Below, one piece after another: positions 2,981 through 52,110 of a stretch of 64,000 nt of DNA; position 1 is the stretch's first letter, and each line of letters begins with the position of its first letter. The notes below the pieces were generated by a model. That model ran no database searches. It saw nothing but the letters and a program-made list of their open reading frames with translations, and was not told where the DNA came from. The translations under genes and the position numbers were made by a program. Origin of the DNA: a virus (taxonomy: Duplodnaviria; Heunggongvirae; Uroviricota; Caudoviricetes); the IMG/VR virus record IMGVR_UViG_3300029305_001878, positions 1-64,000 of that record. One strand, given 5' to 3'.

Positions 2981-3009
2981 TTGATTTTTTTAAAAAAATA
3001 TTATATAAT
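2981..3009 (+). promoter_or_regulatory. Sigma70-like promoter (TTGATT-17-TATAAT), consensus copy
   Basis: ttgatttttttaaaaaaatattatataat; member of the repeated promoter family. Confidence 0.6.
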
Positions 3010-3044
3010 ATATATAGAAATTAAGAGAAAAAGGAGTTTTTTAA

Positions 3045-5495
3045 ATGCCTGAAATGCAGAAGGACTTGGTCCTTTCTATTAATGAATATGCCTATGTTCT
3101 TGACCGAACTAAGGGTAATGTAAGTTGCTGGGTTGGCCCCGCAAAGACTTCTCTTTCCACTTCCGATGAAATGGTTGTGTTTAATGAGAATACCAAGGCT
3201 TTTGAACCCGCACGAAATTATTATGAAGCAACTAAACTTTTCACTACCGCACCTGAAAACTGGTATGTGATTTTGAAGAACCCCACTGAAAATAATTCTC
3301 ATCCTCGTCCCGGCACTGCTAACAATCTGCCTGATAATATTCAGATTGGTCGTAAGATTAACATCCGTGGCCCTGTTTCTTTCCCTCTGTATCCTGGCCA
3401 GATGGCAAAGGTAATTAGAGGACACGCACTGCGCACTAACCAGTATCTGCTGGCTCGTGTCTATGAAGCAGAGGCCGCAAGTCAGTCTCAGGGTGAAATG
3501 TTGGATGCCGAAGGCAATAAAATTGAAACTGTAAATAAGTATGTTAATGGTCAGATTCTGGTCATTAAGGGTACTGAAGTTTCTTTCTATATTCCTCCTA
3601 CTGGCATTGAAGTCATTCCTGTTTCCAACGATTATCGTAAGGGTTATGTGCGCGAAGCCGTTACTCTGGAACGTTTAGAATATTGTATTCTGAAGGATGA
3701 AGATGGCAATAAGCGCTATGTTCACGGCCCCGAAGTGGTGTTCCCCGAGCCTACTGAAACTTTTGTAACTTCCCCCAAGGGTGGTTTTGTTTTCCGTGCT
3801 ATGGAACTGTCTCCCATTTCCGGTCTGTATATTAAAGTTATTGCCGAATATACTGATGATAAAAAGGTAGTTCATCCTGTTGGCGAAGAAATGTTTATTA
3901 CTGGTAATGACCAGATGATTTATTATCCTCGTCCTGAACACGCAATTATTAACTACGATGGCAAGTTGATGCATCACGCTATTGCTATTCCAGAAGGCGA
4001 AGGTCGCTATGTTATGAATCGACTGACTGGCGAAATTCGTACGGTGCGCGGCCCCGCTATGTATCTGCCTGATCCTCGAACTGAAGTTGTCGTTAAGCGC
4101 AAGTTGAGTGAAAAGCAGTGTAATCTGTGGTTCCCTGGTAATGTTGATGCTCTGGCTTACAATCTGGCACTAACTGAAAAGGCTGTTGAAAAGTCCGTGG
4201 CTAAGTCTACCACTGCTAACTATATGGCCACAACTGATTGGGCTTTCTCTACCGCTGATACTGCTACTACTCTGGCAAATCTGGAAGCAAAGGCAAATAT
4301 CTCTCGTGGCACTTCTTACACCAAGCCTCGTACAATTACTCTTGAAACAAAGTTTGAGGGAGTTGTTGCGATTGACATTTGGACTGGCTATGCCGTAAAT
4401 GTCATTTCCAAGAATGGTGAGCGCAAGGTTGTGTGCGGCCCGCAGACTGTCCTGCTGGATTATGACCAGACTCTGGAAGTTTTGACTATGAGTACCGGTA
4501 AACCTAAAACCACTGATAATTGTATTCAGTCTGTATATCTGCGGCACGAAAACAATAAGGTCAGTGATATTATTAATGTTGAAACTAAGGACTTTGTGCG
4601 TTGTGCTGTTAAGGTTTCTTATTGCGTTGACTTTGATAAGAAGGCAATTAATAAGTGGTTCAATGTTGATAACTATGTTAAGTTCTTGTGCGACCGCGTG
4701 AGAAGTGAAGTTAAGCGTGTTGTTAAGAATTATACCATTGAAGAGTTCTACAATAATTACTCCACTATTGTTCACAATGTTGCTGTTTGTGCTGACCGTG
4801 AAAAGGCAGATGGTGATACTCGAATCGGCAGATACTTCCCCGAAAATGGTATGTACATTCACGATTGTGAAGTATTGAGCATTTCTGTTGAAAATGAAAT
4901 CGCAAAGATGCTGACTGCTCATCAGCAGGAAATGGTTCAGAAGTCTCTGGAACTGTCTGATGCTGAAAAGAGAGTTAAGGTTGCTACTGCTCTGGCTGAA
5001 GCCGAGAAGAAGGAACAGGAACTGCGCTCCCAGCAGTTGCTGAATAAGATGACCCTGCAGCGTGAGGAAGCAATTCGCAAGCAGGAAATCCAGAGTGAAA
5101 TTAATCGTAAGCAGGAAGCCGAAAAGATTGCTGCAAAGAAAGCCGAACAGGATATGCAGGTAATTATTGACGCTCTGCACGAAGCAAAGTTGGCTCGTGA
5201 TGTTAAGAATGCTGAATTTGAACTTTCTGCCGATAAGGCAAGAGTTGAACTTGCAGTGACAAAGCAGAATGCTTATACTGCTAATGTTGAAAAGATTATG
5301 GCTTCTATTGCTCCCGAACTGATTGCCGCAATGACTTCTACTTCTAATGCACAGTTGATGGAAACTGTTGCTCAGGCTATGTCTCCTGTTGCTATGGCAC
5401 GTGGTGAGTCTGTTGCTGAAACTACTAATCTGCTTCTGCGTGGCACTCCTCTTGAGGGTATGATTGCCGACTTTGTAAAGAAGTCTGCAGAATAA
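3045..5495 (+). CDS. mvp: Major vault protein (MVP) homolog
   Basis: 816 aa. N-terminal MVP repeat domains (YAYVLDRTKGNVSCWVGPAKT; SFPLYPGQ matches MVP PFPLYPGE). C-terminal shoulder plus long Glu/Lys/Ala-rich cap-helix coiled coil. GC-rich; no in-frame TAG. Own promoter and RBS aaaggag. Confidence 0.8.
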   Translation: MPEMQKDLVLSINEYAYVLDRTKGNVSCWVGPAKTSLSTSDEMVVFNENTKAFEPARNYYEATKLFTTAPENWYVILKNPTENNSHPRPGTANNLPDNIQIGRKINIRGPVSFPLYPGQMAKVIRGHALRTNQYLLARVYEAEAASQSQGEMLDAEGNKIETVNKYVNGQILVIKGTEVSFYIPPTGIEVIPVSNDYRKGYVREAVTLERLEYCILKDEDGNKRYVHGPEVVFPEPTETFVTSPKGGFVFRAMELSPISGLYIKVIAEYTDDKKVVHPVGEEMFITGNDQMIYYPRPEHAIINYDGKLMHHAIAIPEGEGRYVMNRLTGEIRTVRGPAMYLPDPRTEVVVKRKLSEKQCNLWFPGNVDALAYNLALTEKAVEKSVAKSTTANYMATTDWAFSTADTATTLANLEAKANISRGTSYTKPRTITLETKFEGVVAIDIWTGYAVNVISKNGERKVVCGPQTVLLDYDQTLEVLTMSTGKPKTTDNCIQSVYLRHENNKVSDIINVETKDFVRCAVKVSYCVDFDKKAINKWFNVDNYVKFLCDRVRSEVKRVVKNYTIEEFYNNYSTIVHNVAVCADREKADGDTRIGRYFPENGMYIHDCEVLSISVENEIAKMLTAHQQEMVQKSLELSDAEKRVKVATALAEAEKKEQELRSQQLLNKMTLQREEAIRKQEIQSEINRKQEAEKIAAKKAEQDMQVIIDALHEAKLARDVKNAEFELSADKARVELAVTKQNAYTANVEKIMASIAPELIAAMTSTSNAQLMETVAQAMSPVAMARGESVAETTNLLLRGTPLEGMIADFVKKSAE

Positions 5496-5502
5496 TTTAA
5501 TA

Positions 5503-5530
5503 AGGCGGTCTAAAGACCGCCCTATTTTTA
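5503..5530 (+). terminator. Rho-independent terminator
   Basis: ggcggtc taaa gaccgcc followed by a T-run. Confidence 0.6.
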
Positions 5531-5548
5531 TATAGGAAGGATTAAAAT

Positions 5549-50181: not shown

Positions 50182-50745
50182 ATGCCTTTAACATCACAAC
50201 AAATTGAAAATGAAATAAAAAAGTTATAGACAAAAAATCTTGAATTAGAATAGGAGATAAATTGTTTTCGTAATAAAAATTATACTGATAATTGGAAATT
50301 AAATTAGAAAATAGAAGGGCACGAAACAATTCTTAATGAATTACGAAGTAATTTAGATCCAATTCTTTCTCAACAAATTTATGATTCATATTTTTTATCA
50401 AATTAGTTAACAGATATTGTAGAAAATAAAAATAAAATTAATGAGTTATATCAATTAGCAAATTATAATATGAGTAAAATTGATTCATTAGAAACTTCTA
50501 TTGATTCATTAAAAGAATCAATAGTTAAAATTGGTATAGATGCTGAAACAATGAGTAAAGCACTCAAAGAAGTTAGTGAAAAACTCAAAGAGATGGCTCC
50601 GGCCGGGGGCAGTCAAGAAAATCGTGTTCCCGAACCTGAAAGTGATTTAGAAATTTTTGACCAAATTGAACCAAATAAAAATGATGCTGAATTTTTAGAA
50701 TGGCTCAATAATGCAAATAATTATTTTTATAGAGAAGAATGGTGA
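50182..50745 (+). CDS. Coiled-coil hypothetical protein; 5 TAG
   Basis: ATG 50182 is in frame with track ORF 50470-50745 through 5 TAGs. RBS aaaggag. Confidence 0.4.
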
Positions 50746-50761
50746 GAGGAGGAAGTAGACC

Positions 50762-51934
50762 TTGGTCTTAACTAAAAAGCAAGAAGAAGGATTAAAGATA
50801 GCAGTAGAACGTTATCGTAATAATGAGCCATATACTTGTATAGCAGGTTATGCAGGAACAGGTAAGTCGACATTAGTTAAATTTATTATTTCCGCCTTGA
50901 ACGTTTATCCAGAAGATGTATGTTATGTAGCATATACCGGTAAAGCAGCGAAAGTTCTCGCAGAAAAAGGTTGCCCTAATGCGATGACGGCGCATAGATT
51001 ATTATATAAATCTATTCCAAGAGACGATGGAACTTTTTATCATAAGATTAAAAGACCATTAGATTATCCTTATAAATTAATTGTAGTCGACGAAATTTCT
51101 ATGCTTCCAAAAGAAATGTGGGATTTACTTTTATCTCATAATATCTATGTTATTTGCCTTGGCGACCCATTTCAGTTGCCTCCAATAGGAGAAGATAATG
51201 GAGTTCTTTATGATGCTCACATCTTCCTTGATGAAATTATGCGGCAGGCGCAAGAAAGTGAAATTATTCGTTTAACTATGGATATTCGTGAAGGTAAACC
51301 TTTACAATTATTTAGAGGTAACGAGGTTCAAGTAGTTAATAAAATTGATTTAGTTGATGGAATGTATACTTGGGCTGACTAGATTATTGTAGGTAAAAAT
51401 GATACTCGTAGAAATATTAACGCGTGTATGCGAAAAATGCTTTTTGGTATTGAAGATGGCGCGCCCATTGTAGGAGATAAAGTAATCTGTTTGCGCAATG
51501 ACTGGGAACACCCTAGTGAAGCAGGCGATATTGCTGTTAATGGCACTATTGGATATTTAACTAGTATTCATTATAATAAATATCATCCTTATCTTCATCC
51601 TCAATTAATTGCTGATTTTTTACCTGATACTTATAGTATTGAAGATGTAGAAAGAAGTCCTTATGATTTATTTTTTAGAAATGTAAATATGGATTATAAA
51701 CTTCTTACTACTGGTGAAGAAACAGTTAATAATAAAAATTTTAAATTCTTTCCAAAGCAACATAGACCTCAAGTATATGATTATGGATATTGTATTACTT
51801 GTCATAAAGCGCAAGGTAGCGAATATGATAAAGTTTTAGTTATTGAAGAATTTTTAAAAGGTAATGAACACGCTCGTTGGCTATATACTGCTGCTACAAG
51901 AGCAAAAGAAAAACTTGTTATTGTGAGGAAATAA
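50762..51934 (+). CDS. dda: SF1B Dda/RecD-like DNA helicase; 1 TAG
   Basis: AGYAGTGKST Walker A, DEISM Walker B, C-terminal helicase motifs. TTG start after RBS gaggagga. TAG at 51380 joins the two track ORFs. Confidence 0.7.
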
Positions 51935-51936
51935 TT

Positions 51937-52095
51937 ATGGAAATGACTGTTAATGTAAAAGATTGTAGAAAGTTTGTAGAAGATTCTAAATTTTCTCAAT
52001 TTCTTTTAAATAATACTACTGATTTTTCAGTAGCCGCTTGGGTATTATCTACTTTATTAAACGAGTTGGATAAGTATGAAGTTGATTCTAATTAA
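51937..52095 (+). CDS. Small hypothetical protein
   Basis: 52 aa; contains the promoter for dnaE at its 3' end. Confidence 0.35.
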   Translation: MEMTVNVKDCRKFVEDSKFSQFLLNNTTDFSVAAWVLSTLLNELDKYEVDSN

Positions 52096-52110
52096 AAAAT
52101 ATGTTATAAT
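52082..52110 (+). promoter_or_regulatory. Sigma70-like promoter, consensus copy
   Basis: ttgattctaattaaaaaatatgttataat. Confidence 0.55.

Follow-up and report, generated by a model that had tools for sequence, protein, structure and literature searches.

The early promoters of the coliphages T5 and T4 (reviewed for T4 in PMC2988021) are very strong and read by host polymerase, as the repeated modules described here are predicted to be, and like the modules they show AT-rich conservation outside the hexamers. Their spacer is made up of A/T tracts, their −10 is extended, and the start of the transcript is conserved up to a strong ribosome-binding site; the likeness to T5 is put forward tentatively. 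T5 and T4 have Gram-negative hosts, and their early promoters lack the TRTG form. Early genes of SPO1, a large Bacillus phage (Bacillota), use host sigma-A (PMC13401047); its early promoters belong to the host-takeover module, and 11 sites of this type were found in the first 14 kb of its genome (NC_011421). These promoters and the modules have in common (i) their presence in many copies, with host sigma-A presumed to act here as well; (ii) TTGACW, a 17-bp spacing and a TRTG-type extended −10; and (iii) additional family-specific conserved positions. The SPO1 promoters differ in that their spacers contain G and C (ttnnCTAc...gTGTG), their −10 is mostly AATAAT or CATAAT, an AAAAAGT block lies upstream, and they were validated experimentally whereas the modules are predicted from sequence; a weight matrix built from the clade of the present phage detected none of the SPO1 sites. 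The promoter-early stem-loops (PeSLs) of T4-type phages (PMC2839356, PMC4122927) likewise join repeated consensus early promoters to a stem-loop terminator or attenuator, are dense in variable regions where they flank orphan ORFs, and bound the indels and replacements that separate close relatives; the crossovers fall downstream of the −10 and ahead of the ribosome-binding site. However, PeSLs belong to another phage lineage and host phylum, while here the stem-loop accompanies only about one third of the copies, always upstream of the −35 and not inside the promoter, and many copies occupy stable orthologous sites in a conserved replication core.

The same module family was found in phAss-1 (OQ749652), a complete, distant genome of 136 kb whose published description makes no mention of promoters (PMC10607447). 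Its 22 copies follow TTGACW-T-A7-T5-RTG-N-TATAAT-ATATATAGAAA, with the spacer T-A7-T5-RTG almost invariant despite a GC content of 44.5%, and all 22 lie on the minus strand, where its genes for replication, nucleotide metabolism and tRNAs are also found; a whole-genome scan found no modules on the plus strand, which carries the structural block. phAss-1 is also TAG-recoded and has a predicted host in Clostridia. It differs from the phage examined here in its spacer (A-tract then T-tract, as opposed to T-tract then A-tract), its GC content and its DnaE protein, which is only 39.5% identical.

The window analyzed here, a stretch of 64,000 nucleotides, is part of an uncultivated gut phage in which TAG is recoded to sense; its GC content is ~31%, and all genes are on the + strand. 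A preliminary description had proposed at least 15 copies of a roughly 40-bp promoter module between 2981 and 52110. When its pattern was searched on both strands at ≤3 mismatches, 12 matches were detected, all on the + strand, compared with none in 100 dinucleotide-preserving shuffles. An iterated position weight matrix scan returned 15 copies, again on the + (gene) strand, at 35-59 bits, while the best match in 20 shuffles reached 13.7 bits; the sole minus-strand match (19.9 bits) was the palindromic spacer of the 11159 copy. The proposed number and length were borne out, and the proposed range holds for 14 strong copies but not for the fifteenth, at 61680. Together with two weaker intergenic relatives (31332 and 35384), these define the consensus TTGAYT-N17-(TRTG)N-TATAAT-ATWTAT-A. 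The −35 to −10 spacing is precisely 17 bp in all 15 strong copies, as had been claimed. TATAAT is present in 14 of 15 (25599 has TATTAT), TG at −15/−14 in 12 of 15 and the full TATG in 11 of 15. Downstream of the −10 a conserved ATWTAT-A-YAAA extends the module to ~40 bp; an A sits 7 nt past the −10 in every strong copy, most copies have a Shine-Dalgarno core between +5 and +18, and the distance from module to start codon is 24-40 nt. The 40-base element was confirmed as a genuine family, whose members read as near-perfect bacterial-type promoters. The modules, and the hairpins that directly precede six of them (5-6 of the 15 window copies), are as follows.

2936..2968, + strand, intrinsic-terminator hairpin (−17.0 kcal/mol) just upstream of module 2981
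2981..3021, + strand, module after that terminator, upstream of the MVP-like gene 3045-5495
6392..6432, + strand, module beginning one base past the stop of ORF 5549-6391, ahead of the IceA-like nuclease 6452-7045 and DNA methylase 7058-7765
7776..7816, + strand, module with a conserved hairpin (7821-7842) in the 113-nt leader behind it; the DUF2726-type nuclease ORF 7918-8670, an insertion that contains TAG, and the DUF2828/DUF7788 gene 8718-10274 come next
11123..11160, + strand, terminator hairpin (−20.8 kcal/mol) abutting and overlapping module 11159
11159..11199, + strand, module with a 2-nt overlap with that terminator, ahead of a small ORF and the RNA ligase 11761-13056
13724..13763, + strand, terminator hairpin (−19.3 kcal/mol) abutting module 13765
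13765..13805, + strand, module ahead of the NAMPT, macro-like and NadE operon 13826-16889
16911..16942, + strand, terminator hairpin (−18.7 kcal/mol) abutting module 16944
16944..16984, + strand, module ahead of the metallophosphoesterase 16999-17727
17730..17770, + strand, module heading the operon from 17790 to the flotillin gene 19528-20985, which ends in terminator 20988-21019
25599..25639, + strand, module (TTGACT, TATTAT) beginning one base past the stop of ORF 24306-25598, ahead of 25652-26381
29106..29147, + strand, terminator hairpin (−21.8 kcal/mol) abutting and overlapping module 29146
29146..29186, + strand, module ahead of the GyrB, RNase H and GyrA genes 29206-34213, at an orthologous position in relatives
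31332..31372, + strand, weaker member (TTGACA-17-TACAAT) ahead of the RNase H gene 31417-31857
34210..34250, + strand, module with the GyrA stop codon within its −35, ahead of the ATP-dependent DNA ligase 34269-35387, an orthologous slot in relatives
35384..35424, + strand, weaker member (TTGACT-17-TAAAAT) ahead of 35446-35640, its weak −10 kept in orthologous copies
35637..35677, + strand, module with the upstream stop codon within its −35, ahead of a highly conserved 89-aa gene 35722-35991 and terminator 36010-36037
38147..38187, + strand, module with the upstream stop codon within its −35, ahead of the winged-helix regulator-like gene 38216-38566 and AAA_24 gene 39551-40516
40527..40549, + strand, weaker hairpin CCCAAG...CTTGGG (−9.5 kcal/mol) abutting module 40550
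40550..40590, + strand, module ahead of ORF ~40603-41155 and the intein-containing DnaB 41145-43313
52082..52122, + strand, module ahead of DnaE 52145-54643 (continued 55768-57144), orthologous in relatives down to 52% amino-acid identity
61680..61720, + strand, module within the 3′ end of ORF 61421-61702, ahead of a block reaching the dUTPase and RuvC genes

The reported overlap with the 3′ ends of upstream genes was evident at four sites: the stop TGA lies inside the −35 TTGAYT at 34210, 35637 and 38147, and at 61680 it provides the TG of the extended −10. The flotillin gene (19528), which had been listed among the genes with a promoter of their own, lacks one and is the fifth gene behind module 17730. 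Across 801 copies from the clade, a strong hairpin lies upstream of 28-32%, compared with 6-13% of random sites; the terminator hairpins, joined to roughly one module in three, may insulate neighboring units from each other.

The modules are most probably strong, near-consensus promoters of the Firmicute type for the host primary sigma factor (sigma-A/sigma-70 family) that drive early or middle operons. The module architecture runs from a −35 TTGAYT over 17 bp of AT-only spacer and a TRTG-type extended −10 to TATAAT; beyond this come a discriminator of 6 nt, rich in A and T, an A where transcription is predicted to begin, and a purine-rich leader whose ribosome-binding site is strong. Once inside the cell, the DNA would be transcribed from these promoters straight away by host RNA polymerase in its unmodified form, giving expression of operons for DNA replication, for nucleotide and NAD metabolism, and for nucleases and methylases. 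Polymerase use, start site, timing and strength are inferences from the sequence. Firmicute promoters have TRTG, a start site 7 bp after the −10, an AT-rich discriminator and an AG-rich initial transcript (PMC12641261), properties with which the start-site A and leader of the modules agree. The earlier proposals of sigma-70-type promoters with a TG-extended −10 ahead of many genes, and of a regulon read by host RNA polymerase, are supported together by the strict 17-bp spacing, the co-orientation with genes, the placement of the A and the ribosome-binding site, the orthologous conservation and the restriction to the non-structural strand in phAss-1. The earlier argument against a Bacteroidetes host is likewise supported by (i) the TRTG extended −10, typical of Firmicutes (PMC12641261); (ii) a Shine-Dalgarno core ahead of 40 of 71 gene starts, compared with 8% of random 16-mers; (iii) the best DnaE relatives among cultured phages, all of which infect Bacillota; and (iv) motif-carrying MAG bins, mostly Clostridia or Bacilli.

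Relatives were found to hold modules at orthologous sites ahead of GyrB, the ligase slot, g39, g40, g44, g47 and DnaE (52-81% protein identity); a small winged-helix gene and DnaB are among the genes preceded in this way. In alignments of orthologous upstream regions, entered irrespective of motif score, conservation peaked at TTGA, the A-tract, TG, TATAAT, the ribosome-binding site and ATG. Within 3.6 Mb of related loci, perfect hexamer pairs numbered 1150 at spacing 17, compared with 14 at 16 and 19 at 18, and 76% of the 17-spaced pairs had TG at −15/−14. Compared outside the hexamers, modules at one position in different genomes were more alike (identity 0.68) than modules at different positions, whether these came from a single genome (0.56) or from separate ones (0.55). 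The promoters of the conserved replication core are thus vertically inherited at fixed orthologous sites, and the near-identity of copies probably comes mainly from this inheritance and from each "variable" element lying at its lineage optimum. Modules of relatives also precede tRNA arrays, including an amber-suppressor tRNA, and all 12 tRNA(CTA) genes examined, drawn largely from loci picked for containing the motif, have a same-strand module 60-3800 nt upstream.

The spacer and downstream sequence vary less than a primary-sigma promoter would strictly require, most clearly in phAss-1, which leaves room for an additional factor. We consider it unlikely that the modules need, or are controlled by, a phage factor recognizing this invariant sequence, such as a sigma-like or polymerase-modifying protein or a small DNA-binding activator or shut-off repressor. 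Conservation does reach past the known sigma contacts, and two small helix-turn-helix-like genes, each right behind a module, are candidates for the DNA-binding role: the winged-helix gene 38216-38566 and the 89-aa gene 35722-35991, the most conserved of the region (77-91% identity), with its own terminator and a promoter variant almost invariant across 13 genomes. However, the elements fit the canonical primary-sigma consensus in every respect, and neither a sigma factor nor an RNA polymerase gene was found in the window. Known phage sigma factors, for example SPO1 gp28 and gp33/34, use different sequences. Furthermore, the spacer varies by lineage (T5-W3-A6 here, A7-T5 in phAss-1) while hexamers, spacing and TG are constant, as would be expected of effects of composition and strength more than of a fixed site for a protein.

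Quite improbable is the reading that the modules are primarily portable gene-shuffling recombination cassettes, as proposed for the T4 PeSLs, with incidental promoter activity. Of 230 homology breakpoints (events that are partly non-independent) in the variable region of relatives, 56 fell in module zones, which make up 5.1% of the sequence; among non-coding breakpoints the share was 56 of 132, compared with 24% expected. Explicit crossovers lie inside modules (L290/L292 and L283/L285), and crossovers in relatives fall between the −10 and the ribosome-binding site. Modules are dense in the variable region, with as many as 15 in 21.5 kb, and lie on either side of small orphan ORFs, and the ligase slot, bounded by two modules, differs in gene content between genomes. 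Against this, core modules lie at orthologous sites with position-specific signatures, only 2 of 14 indel events in the core region abut a module, similarity within a genome does not exceed that between genomes, so that homogenization is absent, and recombination does not require strict hexamers and spacing. The "portable cassette" of the preliminary description is only partly supported: promoters of the conserved replication region stay at their sites, while modules in the variable region of relatives coincide with homology breakpoints. The family belongs to an ordinary class of phage regulatory signal and, in this case, additionally marks sites of gene swaps among relatives; as a secondary consequence, the 40-60 bp of shared sequence may serve as a substrate for homologous recombination through which accessory cassettes are gained, lost and swapped.

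Chance look-alikes in an AT-rich genome (~31% GC), where generic sigma-70-like matches show no clear enrichment over shuffle expectation (115 vs 90.7, 109 vs 97.3, 100 vs 116.6), or a dispersed repeat with no function, for example a miniature mobile element, are effectively refuted by the shuffles, the orthologous alignments and the spacing counts in related loci. The module is strand-specific, intergenic, at a fixed distance from start codons and conserved where flanking coding DNA has diverged to ~70% identity, and neither inverted-repeat nor duplicated ends are evident on either side of the copies.

A link between TAG content and promoters appears weak. TAG was absent from 13 of 15 promoter-adjacent genes and from 32 of 56 others (P = 0.04), in line with part of the earlier suggestion that promoterless genes are TAG-rich and may depend on a phage factor; however, promoterless genes mostly sit within module-led operons, and no second promoter motif was found in the window. 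Taken as a class, GC-rich, TAG-free genes gave no significant result (P = 0.14). GIY-YIG endonucleases account for five TAG-rich ORFs, and many of the promoterless TAG-rich ORFs are homing endonucleases of this type. The promoter-adjacent genes that contain TAG are 7918-8670 and ~40603-41155.

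Judged by their sequence, the roughly 40-bp modules of the window are a real and well-defined family of host-type promoters, from which we infer a function, a timing and a host. A search with the initially described pattern, allowing up to three mismatches, gave 12 matches, all on the plus strand; 100 dinucleotide-preserving shuffles gave none. With an iterated position weight matrix, 15 plus-strand copies were recovered at 35-59 bits (shuffle maximum 13.7 bits), and the exact 17-bp spacer reported in the preliminary description was present in every one. A search with the two hexamers only returned the same sites plus two weaker intergenic members.

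Promoter modules of the window (start, strand, feature)
2981, plus strand, strong copy
6392, plus strand, strong copy
7776, plus strand, strong copy
11159, plus strand, strong copy
13765, plus strand, strong copy
16944, plus strand, strong copy
17730, plus strand, strong copy
25599, plus strand, strong copy, with TATTAT as its -10
29146, plus strand, strong copy
34210, plus strand, strong copy; stop codon TGA of the upstream gene inside TTGAYT
35637, plus strand, strong copy (promoter of gene g40); stop codon TGA of the upstream gene inside TTGAYT
38147, plus strand, strong copy; stop codon TGA of the upstream gene inside TTGAYT
40550, plus strand, strong copy
52082, plus strand, strong copy
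61680, plus strand, strong copy; TG of the extended -10 supplied by the stop TGA of the upstream gene
31332, weaker intergenic member
35384, weaker intergenic member

Generic sigma-70-like matches showed no clear enrichment over shuffles (115 vs 90.7, 109 vs 97.3, and 100 vs 116.6); thus, the signal is that of a specific module family and not of AT-richness. Rfam returned no match at gathering thresholds and a single chance-level match at relaxed thresholds. A second (middle or late) class of promoters was sought through 8-mer enrichment in the module-masked intergenic DNA, which yielded nothing but words of the ribosome-binding-site or intron-like type.

All sequence features of a primary-sigma (sigma-70/sigma-A) promoter were found, namely the hexamers, a spacer of 17 ± 1, co-orientation and a purine start. 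The -35 was near TTGACA in all 15 strong copies (TTGATT, n = 11; TTGACT, n = 4), and the -10 was TATAAT in 14 of them. Among perfect hexamer pairs in 3.6 Mb of related DNA, a spacing of 17 occurred 1150 times, compared with 14 times for 16 and 19 times for 18. TG was present at -15/-14 in 12/15 window copies and the full TATG in 11/15, and the TRTG positions of the matrix built from the clade of related phages were conserved at T 94%, A 79%, T 99%, and G 80%; this TRTG ends one base upstream of the -10, as in the Firmicute-type extended -10 ('-16 region'). Downstream of the -10, conservation continues as ATWTAT-A-YAAA, in line with the length of about 40 bp first given to the module; an A lies exactly 7 nt after the -10 in all 15 copies, and a Shine-Dalgarno core was found at +5 to +18 in most. 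These features agree with the published description of Firmicute promoters, in which TRTG and a start 7 bp downstream of the -10 occur with a discriminator rich in AT and an initial transcript rich in AG, with Bacteroides an outlier among the promoters studied (PMC12641261).

The family is widespread among uncultivated relatives. An exact 29-mer was found in >113 stretches of IMG/VR contigs of 13-402 kb and in 94 stretches from a scan of 185,579 species-representative genomes. All 94 were on contigs assembled from metagenomes, some as long as a whole phage, and the majority of the bins were Clostridia or Bacilli; no isolate chromosome carried the exact motif, and therefore no direct host promoter match was obtained. 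Modules of relatives were 85-100% identical to those of the window, compared with 64-78% for coding DNA. Loci were also fetched by protein homology (27 around GyrA, 21 around DnaE, and 66 around DUF2828) and are thus independent of the motif. Here too the modules were on the gene strand only and at orthologous positions, including those upstream of GyrB, DnaE, the ligase slot after GyrA, and the numbered window genes g29, g39, g40, g44, and g47. Alignments of orthologous upstream regions, taken at any motif score, peaked at TTGA, a central A-tract, TG, TATAAT, the ribosome-binding site, and ATG. A NAMPT-protein search for related loci gave no pattern match. Two of the fetched loci (L119 and L138) lie on the same 402-kb contig, IMGVR_UViG_3300032167_000002, with two GyrA copies about 193 kb apart; this contig is probably an assembled dimer, which would make that relative's genome roughly 190 kb.

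The distant complete genome of phAss-1 (OQ749652; 136 kb, 44.5% GC, TAG-recoded), whose DnaE is 39.5% identical to that of the window, carries 22 modules of the family TTGACW-T-A7-T5-RTG-N-TATAAT-ATATATAGAAA. The minus strand, on which the replication, nucleotide, NAD, and tRNA genes lie, holds all 22, and the plus strand with its structural block holds none. Promoters go unmentioned in the phAss-1 paper and in the preprint on recoding.

In the window, all modules are on the gene strand, either between genes or at the extreme end of one, with the start codon 24-40 nt after the -10 in most copies. Five strong terminator hairpins abut or overlap a module (≤2 nt), and a sixth module is preceded by a weaker hairpin, such that the T-rich TTGATTTTT can double as the U-tract of a terminator. 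Upstream stem-loops thus accompany 5-6 of the 15 copies, most copies having none; across the clade they were found at 28-32% of 801 copies compared with 6-13% of random sites. Three terminators have no module behind them, and TAG-containing genes come next in each case; transcription reading through the terminator, as opposed to a distinct promoter, could account for this.

Terminator hairpins of the window
2936-2968, abutting or overlapping a module
11123-11160, abutting or overlapping a module
13724-13763, abutting or overlapping a module
16911-16942, abutting or overlapping a module
29106-29147, abutting or overlapping a module
20988-21019, no module behind
26385-26413, no module behind
36010-36037, no module behind

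The left edge of the window (1-2930) holds TAG-containing ORFs, including a DUF285/leucine-rich-repeat protein, that look like late or tail-fibre-type genes; the terminator at 2936-2968 ends them, and the first module follows directly.

A miniature mobile repeat (MITE/REP-like) would be expected to have inverted-repeat or duplicated ends, none of which was evident flanking the copies, and an insertion varying between relatives is contradicted by the orthologous module positions across genomes. Concerted evolution was rejected on the identities outside the hexamers, which were 0.56 for different positions in the same genome and 0.55 for different positions in different genomes, compared with 0.68 for the same position in different genomes. 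These values, together with position-specific signatures (the g40 promoter is nearly invariant in 13 genomes), indicate that the copies were vertically inherited, neither homogenised nor recently transposed. Many modules sit in the conserved core. Between close pairs around GyrA and DnaE, 14 indels were counted and only two touch a module, most others being insertions within genes.

The proposal that the module behaves as a portable cassette therefore did not hold for the core copies, which were inherited in place, but it found a counterpart in the accessory regions of relatives, where breakpoints were enriched at modules. Around DUF2828, up to 15 modules per 21.5 kb flank small unmatched ORFs in shuffled order, and among pairs 88-98% identical, 42 of 136 gap boundaries were ≤30 nt from a module. 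With breakpoints taken as the ends of BLAST alignments and de-duplicated, 56 of 230 fell in module zones covering 5.1% of the sequence, and 56 of the 132 non-coding ones did so vs 24% expected, the events not all being independent in either count. About nine accessory-region events have modules at both ends. For the 2784-bp indel between related loci L290 and L292 and the 1872-bp indel between L283 and L285, the junction is a hybrid module with the crossover between the -10 and the ribosome-binding site. The ligase slot (34269-35387) is bounded by two modules and, depending on the genome, encodes a 372-aa ATP-dependent ligase or an unrelated ORF of about 660 aa; among loci L114-L140 this slot shows non-orthologous replacement, with an alternative ORF of about 400 aa in L122.

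The same hybrid-junction pattern, with crossover between the -10 and the ribosome-binding site, is known for the promoter-early stem-loops (PeSLs) of T4-type phages (PMC2839356). Both are repeated consensus early promoters, and the modules are dense in the variable regions of relatives beside small orphan ORFs. A stem-loop as part of the element accompanies about a third of the modules. In lineage the phage is clearly distinct from the T4 type, since its DnaE polymerase and gene content are similar to those of Bacillota phages; thus, the modules work like PeSLs without being members. Such recombination is a side-effect, seen in relatives; it suggests that a role of promoter-terminator repeats as recombination linkers extends beyond the T4-type phages.

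A second comparison was with SPO1, whose host-takeover region has 11 sites of TTGACW-17-nATAAT with TGTG and shared flanks of their own. These early promoters are like the modules in architecture but unlike them in sequence, and the clade matrix gave zero matches on SPO1; the two families are therefore analogous, not sequence-similar. As a separate observation, three related loci (L002, L007, and L031) combine an AT-only module with a second dense promoter family, TTGACAaac...atGTGcTATAATa.gtacatcaa, whose spacer contains G and C and which resembles the SPO1 early promoters.

With a GC content of about 31%, the window has a GC skew that is positive throughout, and every plausible gene is on the plus strand. 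Reading TAG as sense raised coding coverage from 78% to 92%, after which no gene required a TAG stop; the phage is therefore TAG-recoded. Its gene content is replication and metabolism: (i) an MVP-like protein, IceA-type nuclease, DNA methylase, and DUF2828/DUF7788 protein; (ii) RNA ligase, NAMPT, NadE, phosphoesterases, flotillin, and PhoH; (iii) GyrB, RNase H, GyrA, ATP-dependent ligase, and AAA_24; (iv) DnaB with a LAGLIDADG intein, primase, RecJ-like and RecD-like proteins, and a split DnaE; and (v) NrdD, dUTPase, RuvC, and five GIY-YIG endonucleases. Genes for a sigma factor, RNA polymerase, and tRNAs are absent from the 64 kb. Megablast of 25 kb against cultured and deposited phages gave no match, and the nearest fetched relatives had ≤78% DNA identity. 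The best cultured-phage DnaE matches (about 40% identity) were to Enterococcus, Bacillus SPbeta-type, and Geobacillus phages, plus phAss-1. NrdD indicates an anaerobe, and 40 of the 71 starts have a Shine-Dalgarno core ahead of them, compared with 8% of random 16-mers. Together with the TRTG promoters and bin taxonomy, these features point to a Firmicute host, probably of the Clostridia, for which the modules are independent evidence, and support the earlier argument against a Bacteroidetes host. As a concrete, scannable promoter model, the modules apply to a large clade of uncultivated gut phages, and they offer a culture-free way to tell early/middle transcription units from late ones where recoding breaks annotation. 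In hosts of the Clostridia type they may also be useful as compact strong promoters; the current understanding of phage transcription is not overturned.

The relationship of the modules to TAG recoding was modest. The first gene after a module was TAG-free in 13 of 15 cases, compared with 32 of 56 other genes (Fisher's exact test, P = 0.04), with 1.3 and 4.4 TAG per 1000 codons, respectively. The correlation anticipated in the preliminary description was thus seen for first genes; its promoterless genes proved mostly internal to module-led operons, and the association of GC-richness with freedom from TAG, on which its 'GC-rich TAG-free' class rests, was not significant (P = 0.14). Five TAG-rich ORFs are GIY-YIG endonucleases. 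A same-strand module was present 60-3800 nt upstream of the suppressor tRNA(CTA) in 12 of the 12 cases examined (relatives and phAss-1), most of these loci being motif-selected. The link to the code switch is at most suggestive. The ORF at 36046-37044, with 12 in-frame TAG codons, starts 8 nt past a terminator without a promoter of its own; its N-terminal membrane and coiled-coil part is followed by a C-terminal GIY-YIG domain, an arrangement kept in relatives.

A broader reading, which we consider doubtful when taken as a whole, is that a two-step timing circuit, general to TAG-recoded Firmicute phages, has the module as its transcriptional half. The host polymerase would first fire a uniform set of maximal-strength promoters, which would express TAG-free early genes together with amber-suppressor tRNAs; only afterwards would the TAG-containing genes, many of them behind terminators and with no promoter of their own, become translatable. 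The invariant A/T-tract spacer would later serve as a shut-off site for a small conserved phage DNA-binding protein (candidates, 35722-35991 or 38216-38566), and the modules would double as PeSL-like recombination linkers, which if true would have no precedent outside T4-type phages.

Further observations concern individual genes. The 89-aa acidic protein encoded at 35722-35991 is the most conserved of its region (77-91% identity); the gene has a promoter variant of its own that hardly varies, and its terminator (36010-36037) is conserved. It matched no Pfam or PHROG family; single-sequence structure prediction, of moderate confidence (pLDDT about 70-86 over residues 1-50), gave a predicted three-helix, helix-turn-helix-like bundle at the N-terminus, making it a candidate abundant DNA-binding protein or regulator. 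The NrdG-like activase frame (61203-61702) appears interrupted, with a change of frame after GGGTGTCCT, just before the RCKGCHNP motif, which suggests a frameshift, small insertion or assembly error. The DnaB helicase (41145-43313) is interrupted by a LAGLIDADG/Hom_end intein.

GC-rich non-coding stretches of the window
43314-44423
48629-48860
54644-55767
57145-57269

These stretches share the motifs CCTGTATCGACTAT...GGGCTACTATTGAYACGTAGT...AAAGATAGTC and AATCCCGTGGGAA and flank low-GC, TAG-rich GIY-YIG ORFs (43469-44164 and 54825-55649), and DnaE is split around one of them (52145-54643 and 55768-57144). Rfam gave no match to them; they resemble group I introns that carry homing endonucleases.

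The MVP-like protein at 3045-5495 has shoulder and repeat domains of the Major Vault Protein; its gene (43% GC, TAG-free) has as a near neighbour the DUF2828/DUF7788 gene (8718-10274), an unusual phage pairing that is adjacent in several relatives. The latter gene is preceded by a conserved 5′-UTR hairpin (CCUCUUGUCCAAGAGG; 7821-7842 and about 8684-8699), from which the DUF2828 start codon is about 30 nt downstream in relatives L259-L324; in the window, hairpin and gene are separated by an inserted nuclease ORF with TAG codons (7918-8670). Compensatory stem changes across relatives (CCTCTCGTCCGAGAGG, GCCCTAGTCCAGGGC, GACTTGTCCAAGTC, and others) retain the loop, and the hairpin may be a cis-regulatory RNA.
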